Part shown: piece after piece, positions 3,116 to 34,977 of the stretch | How positions within the stretch are numbered: position 1 is the first letter of the stretch | Layout of the letters: every line of letters begins with the position of its first letter | Origin: a virus | Taxonomy: Duplodnaviria > Caudoviricetes | Virus record (IMG/VR): IMGVR_UViG_3300017766_003544 | Location: 1 to 35,774 of that record | DNA length: 35,774 bases | Strand: one strand, 5' to 3' | The notes under the pieces: generated by a model | What the model was told of the DNA's origin: nothing | Database searches by the model: none | Seen by the model: the letters and a program-made list of their open reading frames with translations, nothing else | Program-made: the position numbers and the translations under genes

Positions 3116-4114
3116 TCAGGCCGCTCGCCGACTCTCAAAGCTCACCACATTCCCAGGCAACGGCAGCACATCCAGCGGACTCGTGATCGACTCCGCGAAC
3201 CTCGGCACACAATGCAGATACACCTGCGTCGTCTCCACCGAGTTATGCCCCAGCAGCTCCTGCACCTGCGTAATACTTGCCCCACCCGCCAGCAGATTCG
3301 TCGCGAAAGAATGCCGCAGCGTGTGGGCCGTCACCCGCTTATGCAGCCCCACCTTCCTCGTCGCCAGCTTCAGCGCCTTCCCCAACGTATCCTCATGCAC
3401 ATGATGCCGGCGCACGATGCCCGTGCGAGGATCAGTGCTCTCATTCATCGCAGGCCACAGCCAGAACCACGGCCACTCCCTTCCCCCATTCGTAAACTTC
3501 CGCTCCAGTCCATCCGGCAGAAAGATCGCATTCGCACCCGCAGCACGGTCCCGATCATACACAACACGCACCCGCTCAAAATGAGCATGCAGCCGATGCA
3601 CCAGAGACCGAGGTAGCACCGTCACCCGGTCCTTGTCCCCCTTACCCCCGCGCACCGTCACCAGACACGCCTCCAGATCGATGTCCTTCACCCGCAGCGC
3701 CAGCAGCTCCGCCACGCGCAGCCCCGAACCATACGCCAGCTCCGCCATCAGTCTCGTCCCCGCAGGCATCACCGCCAGCAGCCTTTGCATCTCCTGTGGA
3801 GACAGCCATGTCGGCAGCCGCTTCGGACGCTTCGCCCTCGCCCACTTCCCCAGATCCCCCAGCGGCTCCCTCACCACATCCCGATACAGAAAAACAATCG
3901 CATTCAGAGCCTGATTCTGAGTCGATGCCGAGCACCTCGGAGCCAGCTTCTCCAAAAATGTCCTCACCCTCTCCTCACGCGGCTGATGCCCACAAGCCTT
4001 CACATGCGCCCCAAAACGAGCGATCCACCCCGCATAAGTGACCTCAGTGTGCCTCGAAAGCCTCCGAATCCGGCAGACCATCCGCACCTGCTCAAGCATC
4101 TCGTCGAGTTTCAT
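3116..4114 (-). CDS. intI: Integron integrase (IntI-family tyrosine recombinase)
   Basis: SASTQNQALNAIVFLY, RLPTWLS, YGSGLR, GGKGDKDR, the IntI-specific insertion (LPDGLERKF...WPWFWLWP...DPRTGIVRRHH), HTLRHSFAT and LLGH...TTQVYLH. All catalytic R-K-H-R-H-Y residues are present. Confidence 0.95.
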   Translation of the reverse strand: MKLDEMLEQVRMVCRIRRLSRHTEVTYAGWIARFGAHVKACGHQPREERVRTFLEKLAPRCSASTQNQALNAIVFLYRDVVREPLGDLGKWARAKRPKRLPTWLSPQEMQRLLAVMPAGTRLMAELAYGSGLRVAELLALRVKDIDLEACLVTVRGGKGDKDRVTVLPRSLVHRLHAHFERVRVVYDRDRAAGANAIFLPDGLERKFTNGGREWPWFWLWPAMNESTDPRTGIVRRHHVHEDTLGKALKLATRKVGLHKRVTAHTLRHSFATNLLAGGASITQVQELLGHNSVETTQVYLHCVPRFAESITSPLDVLPLPGNVVSFESRRAA

Positions 4115-4135
4115 AAGTTTCCGTTTTTCACCTGT

Positions 4136-4172
4136 CTATCTGGAAAGTTGTTCGGGATAATCACTGTTCGGC
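4136..4172 (+). other. attI: attI-like recombination site A (crossover G|TT at 4166/4167)
   Basis: CTATCTGGAAAGTTGTTCGGGATAATCACTGTTCGGC lies just upstream of intI, the canonical attI position. GTTCGGCAG is the exact complement of CTGCCGAAC at the first attC. 32/34 nt identical to 32721-32754. Confidence 0.8.
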
Positions 4173-4405
4173 AGATACATGAAGCTTGGGTAGGCCGTTC
4201 CTATCAAATCTTCCACCCGACAATGCCACTCATCGAGTTCGTGAGATTTTGCCCATGCCTCCATGATCGGCTCAACCAGCACGAGGATTTCCAGCATAGC
4301 CTTTTCTCGGCACGCGCAGGCGTGGTGGTGAGTTGCGCCAACTGCCGAACAAGGCGAGGCAGCGCAACCCTCAGGAGCGGGCAAGTTTGTTTTTGGATCA
4401 GGCAT
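4136..4405 (-). CDS. Cassette 1 hypothetical protein (starts in attC1, ends in attI-A)
   Basis: 89 aa ORF. ATG at 4405 is inside attC1 and overlaps the upstream stop. The tail NSDYPEQLSR* is encoded by attI. Confidence 0.7.
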   Translation of the reverse strand: MPDPKTNLPAPEGCAASPCSAVGATHHHACACREKAMLEILVLVEPIMEAWAKSHELDEWHCRVEDLIGTAYPSFMYLPNSDYPEQLSR

Positions 4406-4446
4406 CTAGGGCGCTCCTTTCGGGTTGCTGCTCTTTTGCGTTCGCC
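4344..4446 (+). other. attC: attC site 1 (103 bp)
   Basis: R'' GCCGAAC, 5 nt, L'' GAG(G)CAGC ... L' GCTGCTC, 6 nt, R' GTTCGCC. The stem extends (CAACCC/GGGTTG, AGGAGCG/CGCTCCT). Confidence 0.88.
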
Positions 4447-4745
4447 TCAACAACTCGCGTCCAATGGATCGCCATGAAGTCGAGCAAGTGGTTTCCATCA
4501 TCTCCTATCGTTGACCGTCCCGCAGCTTTCGCCGCACGCCGTTGCAGGTTGATGCAGTCGTTTATCGTGGCGCGGAGGATGATGTGCGCGTCCAAGTCGT
4601 TGCCTTCCGGTCCGCACGCTGGCCACGGCTCGCACCATTGGAGCATCGTTTCATGCCGGGATTCCAGCAAGGCGAACAAGGCAGTGGACTCAACGCTGAC
4701 CGCGTTGGAGTCCCCCGTGTTTTCAATGTCTTCTTTCGCGGTCAT
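4398..4745 (-). CDS. Cassette 2 hypothetical protein (starts in attC2, ends in attC1)
   Basis: 115 aa. ATGA overlap at 4742-4745 inside attC2. The tail NAKEQQPERSALDA* comes from attC1. Confidence 0.7.
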   Translation of the reverse strand: MTAKEDIENTGDSNAVSVESTALFALLESRHETMLQWCEPWPACGPEGNDLDAHIILRATINDCINLQRRAAKAAGRSTIGDDGNHLLDFMAIHWTRVVEANAKEQQPERSALDA

Positions 4746-4769
4746 CGTGAGTCACTTTTATCGTTCGCT
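4671..4769 (+). other. attC: attC site 2 (99 bp)
   Basis: R'' GGCGAAC (complement of cassette start GTTCGCC), 5 nt, AGT(G)GACTCA(A)CGCTGACCGCG ... CGCGGTCATCGTGAGTCACT, 6 nt, R' GTTCGCT. Two extrahelical bases. Confidence 0.92.
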
Positions 4770-5014
4770 AAGGAGATTTTTACCGAGACATCCAGCACCG
4801 GCTGGAATCCCTTGATGTATTCGAGGAGGTGGTATCTTTCCGCCCATCCCTCCAGCCTGCCGGGACTCAGCATTTCGGAACCATCAGCACAGGATGCGAC
4901 ATCTGCATGGATAGCCTTGCGAGCCTGAGATTCAGAATCGAAAGGACCAAGCGGGTCTTGCTCTCCCCACTCTTGCGGGGTCTTTCCCCGCATTACATAG
5001 ATTGATCGTTTCAT
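4742..5014 (-). CDS. Cassette 3 hypothetical protein (ends in attC2)
   Basis: 90 aa with an AT-rich start context. The tail NDKSDSR* comes from attC2. Confidence 0.7.
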   Translation of the reverse strand: MKRSIYVMRGKTPQEWGEQDPLGPFDSESQARKAIHADVASCADGSEMLSPGRLEGWAERYHLLEYIKGFQPVLDVSVKISLANDKSDSR

Positions 5015-5024
5015 AAAAATAAAC

Positions 5025-5077
5025 CGCGAACAGGTCAGTCCACCGAACGCTCCGCGCCGGTGACTTTTGCGTTGTGC
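5025..5077 (+). other. attC: attC site 3 (very short, 53 bp)
   Basis: R'' CGCGAAC (6/7 complement of GTTCGCT), 5 nt, L'' AGT(C)CACC ... L' GGTGACT, 5 nt, R' GTTGTGC. Confidence 0.78.
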
Positions 5078-5265
5078 GAATCCATGAACTCGATCTCCGG
5101 TTTCTCGGCGCGCATTTGGCGATACTGCAACTCGACTCGTAGTGAGCCGATGACCACAGCAGCAGCGCGACTGATAGCCATTGCTTCCTCCGCGCTGATG
5201 CTTTTGTTTTCGAGTGCGGCCACGGTCGCGCTCATTTTCTCTCTGAGTGTGTTGATGTTCGTCAT
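5035..5265 (-). CDS. Cassette 4 gene b, small helical phage-type hypothetical protein (ends in attC3)
   Basis: 76 aa. ATGA overlap with gene a. The tail NAKVTGAERSVD* comes from attC3. Confidence 0.72.
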   Translation of the reverse strand: MTNINTLREKMSATVAALENKSISAEEAMAISRAAAVVIGSLRVELQYRQMRAEKPEIEFMDSHNAKVTGAERSVD

Positions 5266-5687
5266 ATTGTTTTGATTCTGGTTCCTAGTTTCCTGCTGAG
5301 TTTGATGTGCTCGCGTTTGATTTCGATTAATGCCTTGGGACAGTCTTCGACTTTCATGTGCAGGTAGCGGTTTGCCACGACGCTATCGGGCAGATTCTCT
5401 ATGTCCTTCCTCGCCTTGCGCTTCACAGCCACTGCTGTCCTTTTTGGTTTCCGAATCTTGCGTGGGTGGTTGGATGGTAGAACCGCCCACCGTTCACGTT
5501 CTGCTTTTCTCTCCACGTCCCTGATGCCTGCCATTGCTCGCCTTTGGCGCTGCTTTTCCATCCTCGCTGCCCATCGGCTTGGATCGGCCTTGATAGCGAC
5601 ATACCACGCAGGCAACGCACAACCAGACGGTGATGCCAAGCCATTCGCGGCGGGCTGCATTGGTGATAGTGCGTCAGGGGCGCTCAT
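5262..5687 (-). CDS. Cassette 4 gene a, basic phage-type hypothetical protein (starts in attC4)
   Basis: Lys/Arg-rich ORF. ATG at 5687 forms an ATGA overlap with the parB-like stop (alternative start 5696). Confidence 0.7.
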   Translation of the reverse strand: MSAPDALSPMQPAANGLASPSGCALPAWYVAIKADPSRWAARMEKQRQRRAMAGIRDVERKAERERWAVLPSNHPRKIRKPKRTAVAVKRKARKDIENLPDSVVANRYLHMKVEDCPKALIEIKREHIKLSRKLGTRIKTI

Positions 5688-5711
5688 GGCTGGCATACCT
5701 CGGCGTCCACC
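5617..5711 (+). other. attC: attC site 4 (95 bp), terminal site with non-canonical R' GTC
   Basis: R'' GCACAAC (complement of GTTGTGC), 5 nt, GGT(G)ATGCCA(A)GCCAT ... ATGGCTGGCATACC, 5 nt, GTCCACC. Confidence 0.82.
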
Positions 5712-10016: not shown

Positions 10017-10327
10017 GGCCGGTGCGCCCCTCCCAAGCCCTTACGCACCAGCAGCGCCCGCAGATCCCGAGGCGCAGGCGGAAAGCTCGCAGCTTGTAGT
10101 TCGGGCTTCAGCCCGTTCTGACTCTCCACACTCAGATGCTCGTCCTGCCAAGCCCGCAGCCTCGCCGCCCCCGCCTCCAGATAATCCCCCACACGGGAAC
10201 TCGCATTCCCCCCACCCGCAGCCGCCCCACTGGCAGACACCCGTCTGTCCGATGCCGAGCGCCCCATCGGTTGCGCCTGCCCGGCCCCCCGTCTTCTTCT
10301 GTTCGTGTTTTGATTTTCGTAGATCAT
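10013..10327 (-). CDS. Hypothetical early protein (contains a REP-like repeat in frame)
   Basis: GGAGG upstream. The peptide ESQNGLKPELQA is encoded by the 34-bp repeat. Confidence 0.5.
   Translation of the reverse strand: MIYENQNTNRRRRGAGQAQPMGRSASDRRVSASGAAAGGGNASSRVGDYLEAGAARLRAWQDEHLSVESQNGLKPELQAASFPPAPRDLRALLVRKGLGGAHRP
10092..10125 (+). repeat. 34-bp GTAG-type REP-like palindrome, copy 1
   Basis: GCTTGTAGTTCGGGCTTCAGCCCGTTCTGACTCT, identical to 11906-11939. GTAG is followed by the hairpin CGGGCT-TC-AGCCCG. Confidence 0.8.
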
Positions 10328-11267: not shown

Positions 11268-11722
11268 CATTTCAACGGCACACGACAGGCCGGGCAGAGC
11301 CGCGACCTCGGTGCCACAGAATTACCGCACCTTCCGCAGGTCATCACATAGCTCGTATGATCGATGATCAGCGCCGCCACGATCAGCAGCAGCCCCACCG
11401 GCCAGAATAAAATCAGCATCACCAGACCTAACAGAAAACAAAACATCGCCCCGCATCCGCTCCCCTTGCTCCGGCGCTTCTTTCTCACCGGAGCCATCTG
11501 CAACGTCGGCGGGATAAAAGCAGGCTCCCGGCCTGCCTCCATCTCACAGGCAGCCAGCTCATCATCCAGCCCATACCACACCTCCTCCCCTTGGCGGCAC
11601 ACCAGCGCCTCCGCCGTCACAGAGCCAGCCTCATGCATCTTCTGGAGCTGCCCCAAAGCAAACGGCCCCTCAGCATCAGCATCTGGGGTGCGGCAAAGCC
11701 AGTAAGTAGTCGGCAAATTCAT
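11267..11722 (-). CDS. GYF_2 (DUF4339)-like membrane protein with C-terminal zinc ribbon
   Basis: EGPF.L.QL..M...G......LVCRQG...W motif, two TM helices, CGRC...CPAC. Confidence 0.7.
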   Translation of the reverse strand: MNLPTTYWLCRTPDADAEGPFALGQLQKMHEAGSVTAEALVCRQGEEVWYGLDDELAACEMEAGREPAFIPPTLQMAPVRKKRRSKGSGCGAMFCFLLGLVMLILFWPVGLLLIVAALIIDHTSYVMTCGRCGNSVAPRSRLCPACRVPLK

Positions 11723-11905: not shown

Positions 11906-11939
11906 GCTTGTAGTTCGGGCTTCAGCCCGTTCTGACTCT
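11906..11939 (+). repeat. 34-bp GTAG-type REP-like palindrome, copy 2
   Basis: Identical to 10092-10125. Lies between convergent stops, abutting the integrase stop. Confidence 0.8.
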
Positions 11940-13056
11940 AAGGAGCCAGCGCCCAAAACCCCGCCGCCTCCCGCCGCGTCTTTAGCGCCCGGTAATGCTG
12001 GTGCAGCATGTTCGCGCTCTCATGCCCCATCTGCGCCTGAAGCTTCGCCTCATCCTGCCACATCGCATAATGCATCGACGCATACGTGTGCCGCAGCCCA
12101 TTGTTCGGCCACACCGCCAGCCCGCACTTCGGCCAAAACAGCGGCCACTTCTCCTTCAAGTTAGACGGAGCCACCCGCGCCGTCTTCCCCCGCACCTCCT
12201 CCCCAGCCGCCCTGATCCACGCCACCGCATTCACCGTCAGATCCACCACCCGCCGCTGCCGCGTCTTCGAAATCCTCGCCCCCACGACCACCGTCCGCTC
12301 CTCCAGATTGATCGCATCCCACGTCAACCGCTCCATCTCCGCCCGACGCAGCCCCCCAAACATCCCCAGCACCACATAAGGCATCATCCTCGGCTCCAGC
12401 AGCGCCTGCCTCAGCATCCGCCCACACTGCTCCACCGTCAGCGTCCCGATCTCCTCAGCAAGATCCGCCTTCACCACCAAGCCCGCCGAAGGGTCCACCG
12501 CCACATGCCCCTGCGCCACCTCCCGCCCCCAGGCATAGAGCGACCTGAAATGCCCCAGCGCCCCGCTTTGCGTCCGCTTAGACCACCCCTGCCCCGCCAG
12601 CCAAGCCAGCACCTGCCCCGCCGTCAACTCATGAGCCATCACCAAAGGGAAGGCCCGAGCCAGCGACCGCAGCGTCCCCCGATACGTCTCCAGCGTCCTC
12701 CGCGACTTCCCCGCCTCCACCTTCGCCCACAGAAAACTCTCCACCAGCTCCGGCACCAGCACCCTGTTTTTCACCAGCGTCCCATGCCTCATAAAAAACT
12801 CCACCGCCTCCGAGATCGAAGCCCCAGCCTCCCGCAACCTAACCTTCAGCGTCAAAAACTCCGCCATCTCCTGAGGTGAAGCCGAAAGCCCCAGCGCCCC
12901 ATGCGACACCACCGCCGCCTGCGCCTTCGCCAGCGCCCTCTCCGCCGCCCCACGATCCTCCCCAAACGAAACACGCCTCCGCACCCCATCGACGATCCCA
13001 TAGTCGATGAGCCAGGAGAAATGCCCACTAGGCAGCCTACGTTTTCGGAGCTTCAT
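11938..13056 (-). CDS. int: Phage integrase (tyrosine recombinase)
   Basis: GMFGGLRRAE, SKT, NGLRHTYAS and MGH...HY catalytic motifs. N-terminal arm-binding-like region. Adjacent to attP. Confidence 0.92.
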   Translation of the reverse strand: MKLRKRRLPSGHFSWLIDYGIVDGVRRRVSFGEDRGAAERALAKAQAAVVSHGALGLSASPQEMAEFLTLKVRLREAGASISEAVEFFMRHGTLVKNRVLVPELVESFLWAKVEAGKSRRTLETYRGTLRSLARAFPLVMAHELTAGQVLAWLAGQGWSKRTQSGALGHFRSLYAWGREVAQGHVAVDPSAGLVVKADLAEEIGTLTVEQCGRMLRQALLEPRMMPYVVLGMFGGLRRAEMERLTWDAINLEERTVVVGARISKTRQRRVVDLTVNAVAWIRAAGEEVRGKTARVAPSNLKEKWPLFWPKCGLAVWPNNGLRHTYASMHYAMWQDEAKLQAQMGHESANMLHQHYRALKTRREAAGFWALAP

Positions 13057-14406: not shown

Positions 14407-14874
14407 TCATGGGTTCTGAGTTTCTCCGCAGCATTCCGAATCACTCGGAAGGATGCGGAAGTTTTTGGCGATCACCCAGGCCTTGCCTTGCTTGACGGGC
14501 TCGGGGTAGATGCGGCCTTCGTTGATCCACTCAGTGACGGCGCGCTCGGTAACTTTTTCACGCTGGGCGATGTCGGCGGTCGTGAGGTAGTCTCGGGCCG
14601 TGAGTAAGGGCTCCTTGCCATCCTTGGATTGTCCCACGTTGACGCTTTGGGACTGCGGAGCATGTCCGACCCCCGTGGGCTTGATGACTAAATTGAGAAG
14701 GCCGACGAGGATACCAGCGATGAGAAGCCACACGATTTTTCGGTGGAACTCCACCATGGTCTCAAGGGTAGATTCAGCGAATTTCATACGGCTGGAAAGA
14801 CCTTCAGATGAATCATCTTCACCGAAGATGGCGCGCTCACATTTGGAAAGTCGGCGGTGAAAATCATCATCCAT
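14407..14874 (-). CDS. Membrane-anchored protein with C-terminal excisionase-type HTH
   Basis: TM IVWLLIAGILVGLLNLVI, then YLTTADIAQREKVTERAVTEWINEGRI...GKAWVI. Confidence 0.65.
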   Translation of the reverse strand: MDDDFHRRLSKCERAIFGEDDSSEGLSSRMKFAESTLETMVEFHRKIVWLLIAGILVGLLNLVIKPTGVGHAPQSQSVNVGQSKDGKEPLLTARDYLTTADIAQREKVTERAVTEWINEGRIYPEPVKQGKAWVIAKNFRILPSDSECCGETQNP

Positions 14875-24383: not shown

Positions 24384-24638
24384 TCAAAGGTCGAGGGTGA
24401 TGGGGGTGGGGGATTGGCGGAGTTCATTGACGCGGAGGAGCATTCTGCCGGAGGTGGAGAGGCGGGGGTCGGGCCAGATGTAGGTTTCGCCTGCGAGGAG
24501 TCCGGCGGCGTGGATGAGGGACCAGCCTTCGGTGAGGGAGATTTCCCAGCGCATTTCATGGCGGGTGGTGGTGCCGTGGTAGGCCCGACTCAGGAGGGCG
24601 TAGTATTGCGCCTCGGAGACGGGCAGGGCTAGTTTCCC
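24384..24638 (-). CDS. Tail assembly chaperone frameshift extension (gpGT-like)
   Basis: The -1 frame after the G GGA AAC slippery site reads GKLALPVSEAQYY... Confidence 0.7.
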   Translation of the reverse strand, partial: GKLALPVSEAQYYALLSRAYHGTTTRHEMRWEISLTEGWSLIHAAGLLAGETYIWPDPRLSTSGRMLLRVNELRQSPTPITLDL

Positions 24639-32321: not shown

Positions 32322-32654
32322 CTAACCGAGGATGTCGGCGGGTGTGCCGAGGAATTTAAAGCCGAAGGGTTTGGCGAACTGGGTGGCGGTGGCTCCGTCG
32401 ATGACGGCTTCGACGTGCTCGATGGCTTTGCGGAGGGCGTGGCGGCGATCTTCGGGCGTGGAGGCGCGGAACTGGGCGGCGTGGGAGTTGCCGCTGAAGG
32501 AAGTGCTGGTGATCTCGGCTCCGCTGCGGTCTAGGGCATCAGCCTGGTAGAGTTCGGTGAGCCAGGTGAGCTGGGCGGCATTGCTCGACGGGTGCAGGAT
32601 GCGGGCCTCGAAGAGGTAGTCATCGGTGAGGTCGGAGATGGAGACGGCGGGCAT
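32322..32654 (-). CDS. Head completion protein (gpW position)
   Basis: Small ORF between terL and portal. Assigned by synteny. Confidence 0.55.
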   Translation of the reverse strand: MPAVSISDLTDDYLFEARILHPSSNAAQLTWLTELYQADALDRSGAEITSTSFSGNSHAAQFRASTPEDRRHALRKAIEHVEAVIDGATATQFAKPFGFKFLGTPADILG

Positions 32655-32720
32655 CGACACCGGGGGGTGTCAAAGGATGCGGGCTCGCAAAGCGGGTGCG
32701 TGTTTCTGGTTTGGGGGTGA

Positions 32721-32757
32721 CTATCTGGAAACTTGTTCTGGATAATCACTGTTCAGC
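32721..32757 (+). other. attI: attI-like recombination site B (crossover G|TT at 32751/32752)
   Basis: CTATCTGGAAACTTGTTCTGGATAATCACTGTTCAGC, 32/34 identical to site A. GTTCAGCAAAAT is the exact complement of ATTTTGCTGAAC at attC5. Confidence 0.8.
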
Positions 32758-33094
32758 AAAATACGAGCGCCTCGCCCTTCTCGGCGGTTGCTTCCATGTC
32801 GTCCGCGAGTTCGAGCGCGTTTTGTTTGTCGTGACCGTCGGGCCAGTCCGCCACGAGTTCGCGGAGTCTCGGCGCGACACGCTTGCATTCCTCTGGCGTC
32901 ATTTCGCCTTCGCAGTCGGAGTGCATGAGCAGCGGCGCGATGCCGTCGGTGATTTTGTGCCACGGTCTTTCCGGTGGCCCGAAGCCCGCCATCTCGCGGA
33001 GGTTCATACCGATTTCCGCAGCGAGCCGACACCGGAAGGCGTTGAAGCCGGAGTATGACCACTGCGCGTTTGATTGTCTGAATGCTAGTCCCAT
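32753..33094 (-). CDS. Cassette 5 hypothetical phage protein (HSDCEGE motif)
   Basis: MGLAF...WSYSGFNAFR.RLA...LLMHSDCEGEM. The TGA stop overlaps the core site. Confidence 0.78.
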   Translation of the reverse strand: MGLAFRQSNAQWSYSGFNAFRCRLAAEIGMNLREMAGFGPPERPWHKITDGIAPLLMHSDCEGEMTPEECKRVAPRLRELVADWPDGHDKQNALELADDMEATAEKGEALVFC

Positions 33095-33100
33095 AATTTT

Positions 33101-33192
33101 GCTGAACAAGACGCTGGACCGAAAGTGGCGGGCCGCGTCATTTTTGTTTTCGTGAGTTGCCGACCGCCACTTCGGTCAGCTTTTCGTTAAAT
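33101..33192 (+). other. attC: attC site 5 (92 bp)
   Basis: R'' GCTGAAC, 5 nt, GCT(G)GACCGAA(A)GTGGCGG ... CCGCCACTTCGGTCAGC, 5 nt, R' GTTAAAT. R' overlaps the terL TAA stop. Confidence 0.92.
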
Positions 33193-34977
33193 GAAGCCGG
33201 GGACGAGGCGGGCGATCCAGAGCGCGATGAGGCCGAGCTTGGAGCAGTCGCCATAGTGGTCGTGGGGGACGCGTTTCCACTGGTTGGTGGACTTGTCCTT
33301 CATCTGGCCGGTGTGGCCCATGATGAGGGAGGCATCAGCATCGCTCGGGAGGTGGAAGCCGGGGGTGCTGCGGCGGGCGATGCGGGAGCCGTAGAGGTCA
33401 TCCTTTGCCTGGGTGTCTGAGTAGGTGTAGAGCTTCAGGCCGGGACGGGAGGCGGCGCGGGTTTCGTTGACGGTGCCGTGCTTGGCGTCGCTGCCTTTGG
33501 TTGGCCAGTAGAAGCCGCCGGAGGCTTCGCAGATGTCATACTGTGTCTCGGTGAGGTAGCCGGAATCAATGTAGCCGATGCGGGGGACGATGCGCTCATC
33601 GGTGCCGGGGATGGTGTAGAGGCGATGGCGGAGGAAGTCGGCGGAGACGAGCTCGCGGGAGCTGAGGAGGGTGCCCCAGTCAATGACGAAGAGTCCGCCT
33701 TCGGGAGAGATGGCGGTGACGGTCCAGTGAGTGAGTGCTTCGCCGGGGTCGGCAGTGAGGACGAGGAGCTTGGGCCGGAAGGGCAGGGAGCCGCGCCCGT
33801 AGTCGGTGGAGATGCAGGCTCGGACGGTTTCCTCTTTGATGTTATGGGCGAGGTCGGACCAGCAGTTGGCGAGCCATGAGTTTGCGTGGTTTTGATGGTT
33901 GCCGAGGAGGTCGGCGGGCTTGATGCGGTTCCAGGCGACATCGCCGAAGGTGAGGGCGGGGGAGTAGAAGGACGGGAGGCGAAAGGATTTGTTTCGCTGG
34001 GCGGTGGCGGGGTTGAGGTCGATGGGCTCGACGCGGTCGAGCATGGGGAGGCGGTCTTCTTCGCGGATGGGGTAGGCGCAGGAGGGGCAGATGTAGCGGA
34101 TGGTTTCGCGGACTTTTTGTTCGACCCAGAGGCCGTGGGAGTCGCGGGAGTCTGGGGACCAGACGAGGCTGCGGTAGTCGCTATCGACTTTCTCGTAGCC
34201 GGGGTGTTTGGAGTCGTGGCTTTTATCGGGCCAGTCTTCGAAGGGGAAGAGGTGCTGACATTCGGGACAGGAGACGAGGAAATGAGTTTGTGATCCGGCT
34301 TCGTAGCGGGTCCAGAAAGGGTGCGTGACAATGTTTGGGGACGAGCTTTTGTAGCGGAAGGCGTCGGGGCCGAAGGACTTGGCACGCTCGTCGGCGAGGT
34401 CCATGGGGTGCGCTTCGGGGCTGTCTTCGTTGGAGTGGTGCTCAAATTTGCAGCACTCGTCTTGAAAAATATCGCGTTCGGAAGTGGAGGCGAGGTTGGC
34501 GGGGGAGTTGGTGCCGGTGAGGCGGATGGCTCCGCCGAGCATGTCCATCTCCATATCCGTGAAGTGGTCGGAGTTGGCGGGTTTTCGCTCGGAGAGGATG
34601 GGGTTGAGATTGATGAGGGGCTGGAGTTTTTTTCTGGAGACGGCTTTTTGGGCGGTGTCTTTGGTTGGGAAAACGATGAGCTTTGGGGAGGGGACGTTGA
34701 CCATCCGGTAAACGAGCATCATGAGGAGGCCGAAGGTCTTGAAGACCTGGGTGGCGGAGCAGGTGGTGACGTCGGTGATGCCACGGGCGGGGTCGGCGCA
34801 TTCGAGGATGTGCTGGGCGAAGCCTTGATGCTGGAGGCTGAAGGGGGCCATGGCTCCATGGACGCGGGCCGGGGACATGGAGCGGGGGATTTGAATATGC
34901 CGACTGAGGAACTCGACCACGGCGGGGCGCTGCTCAACCAAGGCGAGGCGCAGGAGATGGGCGCGGCGGTCACTCAT
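33187..34977 (-). CDS. terL: Terminase large subunit (lambda GpA family)
   Basis: SATQVFKT (Walker A variant), IFQDE (Walker B), SSP, CPEC...CPSC, FRLPSFYSP, IDSGY, KGSD and HYGDC motifs. Confidence 0.92.
   Translation of the reverse strand: MSDRRAHLLRLALVEQRPAVVEFLSRHIQIPRSMSPARVHGAMAPFSLQHQGFAQHILECADPARGITDVTTCSATQVFKTFGLLMMLVYRMVNVPSPKLIVFPTKDTAQKAVSRKKLQPLINLNPILSERKPANSDHFTDMEMDMLGGAIRLTGTNSPANLASTSERDIFQDECCKFEHHSNEDSPEAHPMDLADERAKSFGPDAFRYKSSSPNIVTHPFWTRYEAGSQTHFLVSCPECQHLFPFEDWPDKSHDSKHPGYEKVDSDYRSLVWSPDSRDSHGLWVEQKVRETIRYICPSCAYPIREEDRLPMLDRVEPIDLNPATAQRNKSFRLPSFYSPALTFGDVAWNRIKPADLLGNHQNHANSWLANCWSDLAHNIKEETVRACISTDYGRGSLPFRPKLLVLTADPGEALTHWTVTAISPEGGLFVIDWGTLLSSRELVSADFLRHRLYTIPGTDERIVPRIGYIDSGYLTETQYDICEASGGFYWPTKGSDAKHGTVNETRAASRPGLKLYTYSDTQAKDDLYGSRIARRSTPGFHLPSDADASLIMGHTGQMKDKSTNQWKRVPHDHYGDCSKLGLIALWIARLVPGFI

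Follow-up and report, generated by a model that had tools for sequence, protein, structure and literature searches.

The junction downstream of the terminase gene terL in this phage raises the question of whether a single integron integrase serves two attI sites, one beside its own gene and one far away in the late operon. "The window" denotes the whole stretch of DNA that was analyzed (35,774 bases), which is the complete virus record G000. Its long ORFs lie nearly all on the minus strand, and the genome codes for a λ-type terminase, a portal protein, a Clp-type protease, a ParB-like protein, a second tyrosine recombinase, and an intact integron integrase. A ∼35-bp exact direct repeat (10092–10126 and 11906–11940), with its second copy located where the second tyrosine recombinase gene (11938–13056) has its 3′ end, could be an attachment core or the mark of a 1.8-kb inserted module.

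The best-matching sequencing run carries a freshwater label, and database comparison points to a host that probably belongs to the Verrucomicrobiales. Against 50,697 deposited phage records, the portal protein matches only two records of Verrucomicrobia phage P8625 (24%). The portal profile matched seven of 401 genomes sampled from one order, that of an Akkermansiaceae bin; one of the 401, a Verrucomicrobiales genome bin, contains a member of the IntI clade (E 1e-90) together with the same attI. These matches may represent binned phage contigs.

The terL junction (locus B) comprises the following features:

32322–32660, minus strand: small conserved gene between terL and portal, called "head completion" from its position; no family match
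32668–32673, minus strand: TTGACA element before the head-completion gene; the insertion ends short of it, and many late genes are preceded by the same element
32702–32753, plus strand: attI-B, full length ∼52 bp, with an outer conserved block at −49, an inverted/direct-repeat block at −30, a degenerate L box, and an R box with the crossover between G32751 and T32752
32752–33186, plus strand (the attC top strand): cassette 5, 435 bp from crossover to crossover
32753–33094, minus strand: ORF of cassette 5, 113 amino acids, inverted (toward attI), its stop overlapping the R box
33101–33192, plus strand: attC5, 92 bp, a canonical hairpin that has two extrahelical bases and whose R′ overlaps the terL stop
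33187–34977, minus strand: terL, terminase large subunit (λ gpA type), with Pfam GpA_ATPase and GpA_nuclease

The preliminary description had recognized a 34-bp near copy of the intI-adjacent site A with two mismatches, and direct comparison (32721–32754 with 4136–4169) agrees; the runner-up in the window, on either strand, has 14 mismatches. The conserved site extends to ∼52 bp, exceeding the 34 bp first described. The single inverted cassette with a canonical attC also holds up. The attC5 site has R″ (GCTGAAC) and R′ (GTTAAAT) boxes, 5-nt spacers, and a left arm with two extra bases, and the fold of its bottom strand has −17.4 kcal/mol (z −3.0 relative to 200 shuffles). As assessed by our own script and folding rather than by the model of IntegronFinder, it thus shows what defines an attC, namely an R″-L″-VTS-L′-R′ hairpin with spacers of 5–6 nt, extrahelical bases on one arm, and complementarity between R″ and the R box. 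An Rfam scan of the window returned no matches. The TT of the attC5 R′ (33187–33188) falls within the terL stop codon (33187–33189, minus strand), so that the stop codon provides the TT of the distal G/TT junction, and the block sits exactly at the terL stop, overlapping the GTT core, as had been proposed.

The protein encoded by cassette 5 shows a weak match to DUF7739 under the Pfam cut-off and has 15 homologues of unannotated function; apart from the DUF7739 lead, only unnamed clusters turned up. Proteins 96% identical to it begin with either of two N-terminal extensions; one of these looks like attC5 translated in frame. A weak promoter-like match (9/12) at 32717–32746 would be antisense to the cassette 5 ORF.

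The repeat is not an assembly artifact. A 23,859-nt contig, assembled separately from the probable source run, contains B without change (depth 28.8), and a different contig carries site A (depth 26.6); the long contig rules out mis-assembly rather than adding independent biology.

The integrase gene and its own array (locus A) lie at the other end of the window:

3116–4114, minus strand: intI, an intact integron integrase of a phage-associated clade (TIGR02249, 331.8 bits against a cut-off of 265)
4117–4168, plus strand: attI-A, adjoining the intI start, with the crossover between G4166 and T4167
4167–5711, plus strand: array A, four cassettes with their main ORFs on the minus strand
4344–4446, 4671–4769, 5025–5077, and 5617–5711: attC1, attC2, attC3, and attC4 of array A
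5072–5705, plus strand: cassette 4, which forms a branching contig of its own in the source run and whose beginning run X2 links to attI-B

IntI aligns over its full length with 2A3V, including the catalytic motifs and the IntI-specific insertion that mark an integron integrase. Array A ends at a G/TC junction inside the 3′ end of the ParB-like gene. There (5684–5711), the array lies within the last ParB-like codons, and the last attC supplies the C terminus and the stop, which differ between the window and G002 (∼32500). In the probable source run, cassette 4 and attC4 form a contig of their own (5071–5706), with other contigs carrying differing sequence before and after. The plus strand is the attC top strand and the ORFs point toward attI, since the extra bases lie on the plus-strand left arm and cassette 4 branches together with attC4. 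The ORFs of cassettes 1, 2, and 4 and of many relatives start in their own attC, through the hairpin arm, or read through attI to their stop; these overlaps with attC and attI give recurrent terminal peptide tags (e.g. NSDYPEQ) in phage hypothetical proteins.

Sites A and B are 28,585 bp apart in direct orientation, matching the 28.6 kb and the shared orientation given initially. With the only intI at this distance, locus B alone is not a complete integron, which has intI adjacent to attI; with one attC, it is not a CALIN either, which comprises two or more attC sites without a nearby intI.

To define the site, a weight matrix was built from 12 intI-adjacent sites and run on 32 records, three of them lacking <1.3 kb. 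Real sites score 22–56, and reversed-sequence controls reach at most 10.8. Of the 24 records that include the intI 5′ end, 23 (the matrix seed records among them) have the motif immediately upstream of the gene, followed by first cassettes that differ. Sixteen orphan copies are present in 15 of the 32 records. In a gap-free alignment of 21 sites, conservation runs from −49 to the GTT and not beyond; the GTT itself is invariant (21/21), and the bases that follow it vary. Orphan copies are as conserved as intI-adjacent ones: across 10 orphan and 11 intI-adjacent sites, mean pairwise identity is 0.82 versus 0.83 for the last 14 bp, 0.67 versus 0.60 for the outer block, and ∼0.3 outside. Judged by its sequence context, the motif is an attI, because cassettes change behind a G/TT crossover and the same sequence stands beside the intI 5′ end.

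A conserved GGATAAT block is a candidate for the degenerate L box, with an AAC equivalent readable at 4 or 5 nt from R. The blocks at −30 and −49 keep their spacing even within the intI coding sequence and resemble the layout of DR1/DR2, the IntI-bound direct repeats of attI1, which spans to −56 (PMC12901181); they are candidate binding blocks. We also considered, but did not adopt, the left end of the block as a G/TT crossover at −49; this suits the window but not G001, G005, G006, and G021, where homology ends elsewhere or reaches a start codon. A pattern scan of a genome collection gave 63 matches over unrelated taxa; the one examined, L120, scored no site, and the remainder were treated as chance.

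Within this IntI clade, genomes commonly have several attI sites. Eleven records reach at least 32 kb and contain intI, whole or broken; eight of these have at least two attI sites (G000, G006 with three, G008, G017, G018, G019, G021, and G027), and three have one by the matrix (G002, G010, and G012); G030 (IntI 49%) is left out of this count. Restricted to records found via intI, window excluded, the fraction with an extra attI is 6/8. The 11 records represent ∼7 lineages, five of which have extra sites. Two further near-complete records, G004 and G005, carry attI without a detected intI. Direct orientation is not a rule, since eight of the 12 orphans in intI-bearing records are inverted relative to the intI-adjacent site and four are direct. 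With the longest ORF as a crude proxy, 40 of 44 clean cassettes are inverted (three point away from attI and one is a tie), unlike in the canonical integron, whose Pc-driven ORFs face away from attI. Because the cassettes are inverted, their expression would come from phage read-through rather than from Pc.

Candidate intermediates of intI loss are a complete attI-intI unit immediately before the head-completion gene of G016 (whose contig starts within the array, the terL side lying outside the contig), 42-residue intI stubs in G008 and G009, and internal deletions in G002 and G010. In G002, the closest relative of the window, a collapsed attI-attC block occupies a late-gene stop (11350–11529); the corresponding junction of the window is empty (near 24385). 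Tandem attI sites flank intI or its stub in G006 (9667/14307), G024 (9631/14271), and G009 (9098/11529), and after the second of these sites comes the intI leader, fused to the start codon of another gene.

We assign a probability of roughly 0.75 to the reading that B is a complete second attI whose cassettes differ by strain and are likely supplied in trans, either by the single IntI of the phage or by the enzyme of a co-infecting relative. The comparison of relatives bears out a landing pad to the extent that B is a real attI that takes different cassettes, with differing content behind it in runs X2 and X5 and at related sites. At one orphan site, G017/G028 and G018/G019 share an identical left flank (303/303) and a right flank identical save for a 34-nt gap, and the cassettes between are wholly different. 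Arrays with identical flanks vary in the number and identity of their cassettes, and a ∼90% identical cassette occurs in the intI array of G014 and as the first cassette at the orphan site of G017 and G028.

At the terL junction itself, nine loci could be compared. Six (79–83% identity) join terL directly to the next gene without attI, and two at 99% hold an unrelated gene without attC or attI. G001 (terL 98%) carries a diverged attI (core 27/33), another cassette, and an attC at the terL stop, with the junction offset by 1 nt; this may be a separate colonization rather than a swap at the same site. In the same record (L089, 11–310), terL and portal are near those of the window and the capsid gene is just 35% identical over the part present, as after a recent module swap. 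The empty attI-B sites expected in relatives, with attI running straight into the terL stop, were not seen in the nine terL loci, 80 portal loci, or four runs; ancestral-type relatives are without attI altogether. A metagenome scan with the terL-end pattern returned solely the window's own contig, and no RNA data set was listed as containing the B region.

Much of this variation might also arise if B were a passive remnant of a decayed integron, its content exchanged by homologous or mosaic recombination through shared attI and attC sequences rather than by IntI in trans. Decay products do occur, as the intI stubs and deletions, the collapsed block of G002, and the intI-less sites of G004 and G005 attest; the terL junction takes non-cassette genes too (L008/L014), and A and B have 14 identical bases immediately before the crossover. 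We nevertheless regard a passive remnant as unlikely, because the full 52-bp pattern is as well kept at orphan sites as beside intI despite diverging flanks, the observed breaks fall at G/TT, and arrays between identical flanks contain different numbers and kinds of cassettes.

The reading of B as a second attI stocked in trans is further addressed by two runs from other studies. In X5 (record 21), 37 nt of the terL end identical to the window are followed by other sequence abutting the same G/TT, of which 30 letters are visible. In X2 (record 8), 126 nt identical to 32628–32753 are followed by 25 nt identical to the start of cassette 4, joined exactly at G/TT, where site B and attC3 have just the three bases GTT in common; this junction is a single 151-nt contig at depth 2 whose short side (28 letters) is below the 31-letter bridging bar of the tool. 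A cassette of array A (1–4) at site B, as the preliminary description had suggested looking for, is thereby seen. The converse, cassette 5 at site A, was not found: the viral scan gave no relative, and no X3 contig places its start on array A, although contigs cannot show absence.

The X2 junction would arise equally from an excision circle (attI-B × attC3) or from a crossover in the 14 bases shared by A and B. The direct orientation of the sites yields exactly this junction on a 27.7-kb circle, and the record is one read-length contig at depth 2, as a circle or a library chimera might leave; B would then be competent for IntI without normal cassette movement from A to B. The remaining X2 contigs, which show presence only, make this improbable. 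The B flank, terL, and the cassette 4 interior are covered at depths of 2–3.7 (phage flanks ∼3), no contig covers cassette 5, another attC stands at the ParB-side junction, just one contig crosses the B crossover, and no contig joins attC3 to cassette 4. One would hardly expect a rare circle to appear while the parental junctions go unsampled, a weak argument given that contigs show presence only. We favor a strain in which cassette 4 resides at B, because cassette 5 is uncovered, interior and flanks have similarly low depth, and the ParB-side attC differs. Finally, a reading without attI, in which the cassette entered at the terL stop through a secondary GTT site of the attG type and the near repeat of 34 bp is chance, an operator, or an assembly repeat, is largely refuted and barely credible: IntI does insert cassettes at genomic GWT sites (bioRxiv 10.1101/2022.09.11.507474) and the site is partly palindromic, but the motif is tied to intI starts and cassette boundaries in 23/24 records, outscores its reversed controls, is missing from relatives without the insertion, and is spanned by a long contig.

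Integron integrases are described to excise cassettes by attC × attC recombination, insert them by attC × attI recombination, and act at secondary GTT sites (PMC4889954 and PMC10127599). For the second attI at B, we propose that IntI would free a cassette as a circle by attC × attC recombination and, acting in trans, insert it at the G/TT of attI-A or attI-B. The inverted ORF would then have the same direction as phage transcription and would be expressed by read-through of the terS-terL transcript instead of by an integron Pc. B is probably active, and it is plausible that the choice of landing site sets whether a cassette is expressed early or late.

B was probably imported from the integron of another phage and is not a plain copy of site A, because its outer 19 bp are identical to the intI-adjacent site of G015 (19/19) and match site A at just 11 of 19 positions. 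An attI-bearing block might have been fixed at the terL stop, its terL-side boundary formed by an IntI-type G/TT crossover and the other by ordinary mosaic recombination just before the TTGACA element, with intI lost or left behind.

Cross-locus recombination would excise the genes in between, as had been pointed out, and might be counter-selected; by geometry, 27.5–29.0 kb would be lost (29,020 bp for attI-A × attC5 and 27,481 bp for attC4 × attC5). This excision risk is plausible, since IntI1 excises attI1-ORF-attI1 units very efficiently (PMC12901181).

The uniqueness of the layout was overstated initially. The Shewanella prophage vB_SspM_M16-3 was published with two attI sites, one in a complete integron and one heading a second, distant array (Qi et al. 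2023, PMC9892861). In its record (MZ568829.1), we find the attI motif at 38605 (minus strand) beside intI and at 14604 (plus strand) between baseplate V and tail completion. M16-3 thus resembles the window in having one intI and a second attI-headed array ∼24 kb away among virion genes, and its IntI is 43% identical. In contrast to the window, the annotated ORFs at both M16-3 loci point mostly away from attI, the canonical direction. M16-3 is also described as an inactive prophage and a single case, with no evidence of exchange in the text that describes it (PMC9892861), whereas extra sites occur here in 5/7 lineages and their content varies by strain. The same paper lists 17 CALIN-bearing phages in its supplement, which could include relatives.

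CALINs (Cury et al. 2016, PMC4889954; IntegronFinder 2.0, PMC9024848), defined by at least two attC sites without reference to attI, are similar to B in having attC-bounded cassettes away from intI. Their proposed origins are intI loss, rearrangement, and secondary-site insertion, and they have been proposed to be mobilizable by an integrase elsewhere in the genome (PMC4889954 and PMC9024848). Unlike a CALIN, B combines one attC with a full attI and is a receiving platform rather than a donor only. Insertion at attG (bioRxiv 10.1101/2022.09.11.507474) likewise gives a genomic G/TT junction of the IntI type and explains the terL-side boundary; these insertions bring no attI, whereas B has one. 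In Delta-attI-type cassettes and attI1-ORF-attI1 units of class 1 and 2 integrons, the extra attI is a working IntI1 substrate but lies inside one array, closing a cassette in place of attC (PMC12901181), whereas B heads its own array 28.6 kb off. Standard tools miss attI outside class 1 (PMC9024848). Our literature search, with most subscription journals outside its coverage, found no phage clade with several attI sites, inverted cassettes, or inter-locus exchange. Among the literature found, the two-site layout is in print for one inactive prophage only (M16-3); new here are that it recurs, that the cassettes are inverted, and that there is a sign of traffic between the loci.

The junction between terL and the head-completion gene is a family-wide insertion hot spot. 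Among 80 portal loci, 68 include the end of terL as well as the following gene. They represent 43 distinct junctions, of which nine are empty and 34 have inserts. By patterns written after reading the sequences, the inserts end in a fixed attC-like hairpin (18), a second attI-like motif (eight), the window-type attI (one), or none of these (seven); raw counts from a relaxed attC script, which matched 51 of 170 shuffled junction intervals, were not used as evidence. Within one lineage, the series runs from an empty junction (L265) to a gene-less hairpin (L254 and L269) and a hairpin with cassettes (L253, L256, L260–L263, and L268). The gene-less attC-like hairpin, found between the terL stop and the next gene in L254, L269, L264, and L255 with a 4-nt spacer on one side, appears to be a fixed landing pad in place of attI. 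The second attI-like motif family lies at gene junctions (L209, L251, L273, L275, L280, and L282) and was not found beside intI in 12 loci with 2.5-kb flanks.

All examined inserts end before the TTGACA element of the next gene, and the junction may tolerate them because they spare it. On the minus strand of the window, TTGACA stands ∼10–35 nt upstream of many late-gene starts (e.g. 32673, 30680, 29627, 28203, 28090, 24387, 17204, 14894, 14375, and 13837). In relatives, the element often overlaps the previous stop codon. It has no −10 box downstream; it may be a phage promoter or initiation signal.

The usual picture of an integron is one attI, one promoter, and one ranked array. The phages described here contrast with it in that several attI sites per genome are common, cassettes are reversed, and a cassette of the intI array turns up at a distant site. 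As a tentative proposal, to which we give somewhat less than even odds, a large group of freshwater phages, probably of Verrucomicrobiales, would run a distributed integron, in which one phage-specific IntI shares inverted cassettes among several pads at gene junctions and the pad sets the timing and strength of expression. The pads in this proposal are the full attI, the second attI-like type, and the fixed gene-less attC. What is also gained is a sequence-defined attI family and a compact two-site system for studying the use of an orphan attI in trans. A distributed integron, if true, would be an enzyme-driven route to the turnover of phage morons. If it is confirmed, the place in the phage transcription program would replace the distance from Pc as the control of cassette expression, and part of phage mosaicism would be the product of a site-specific enzyme.
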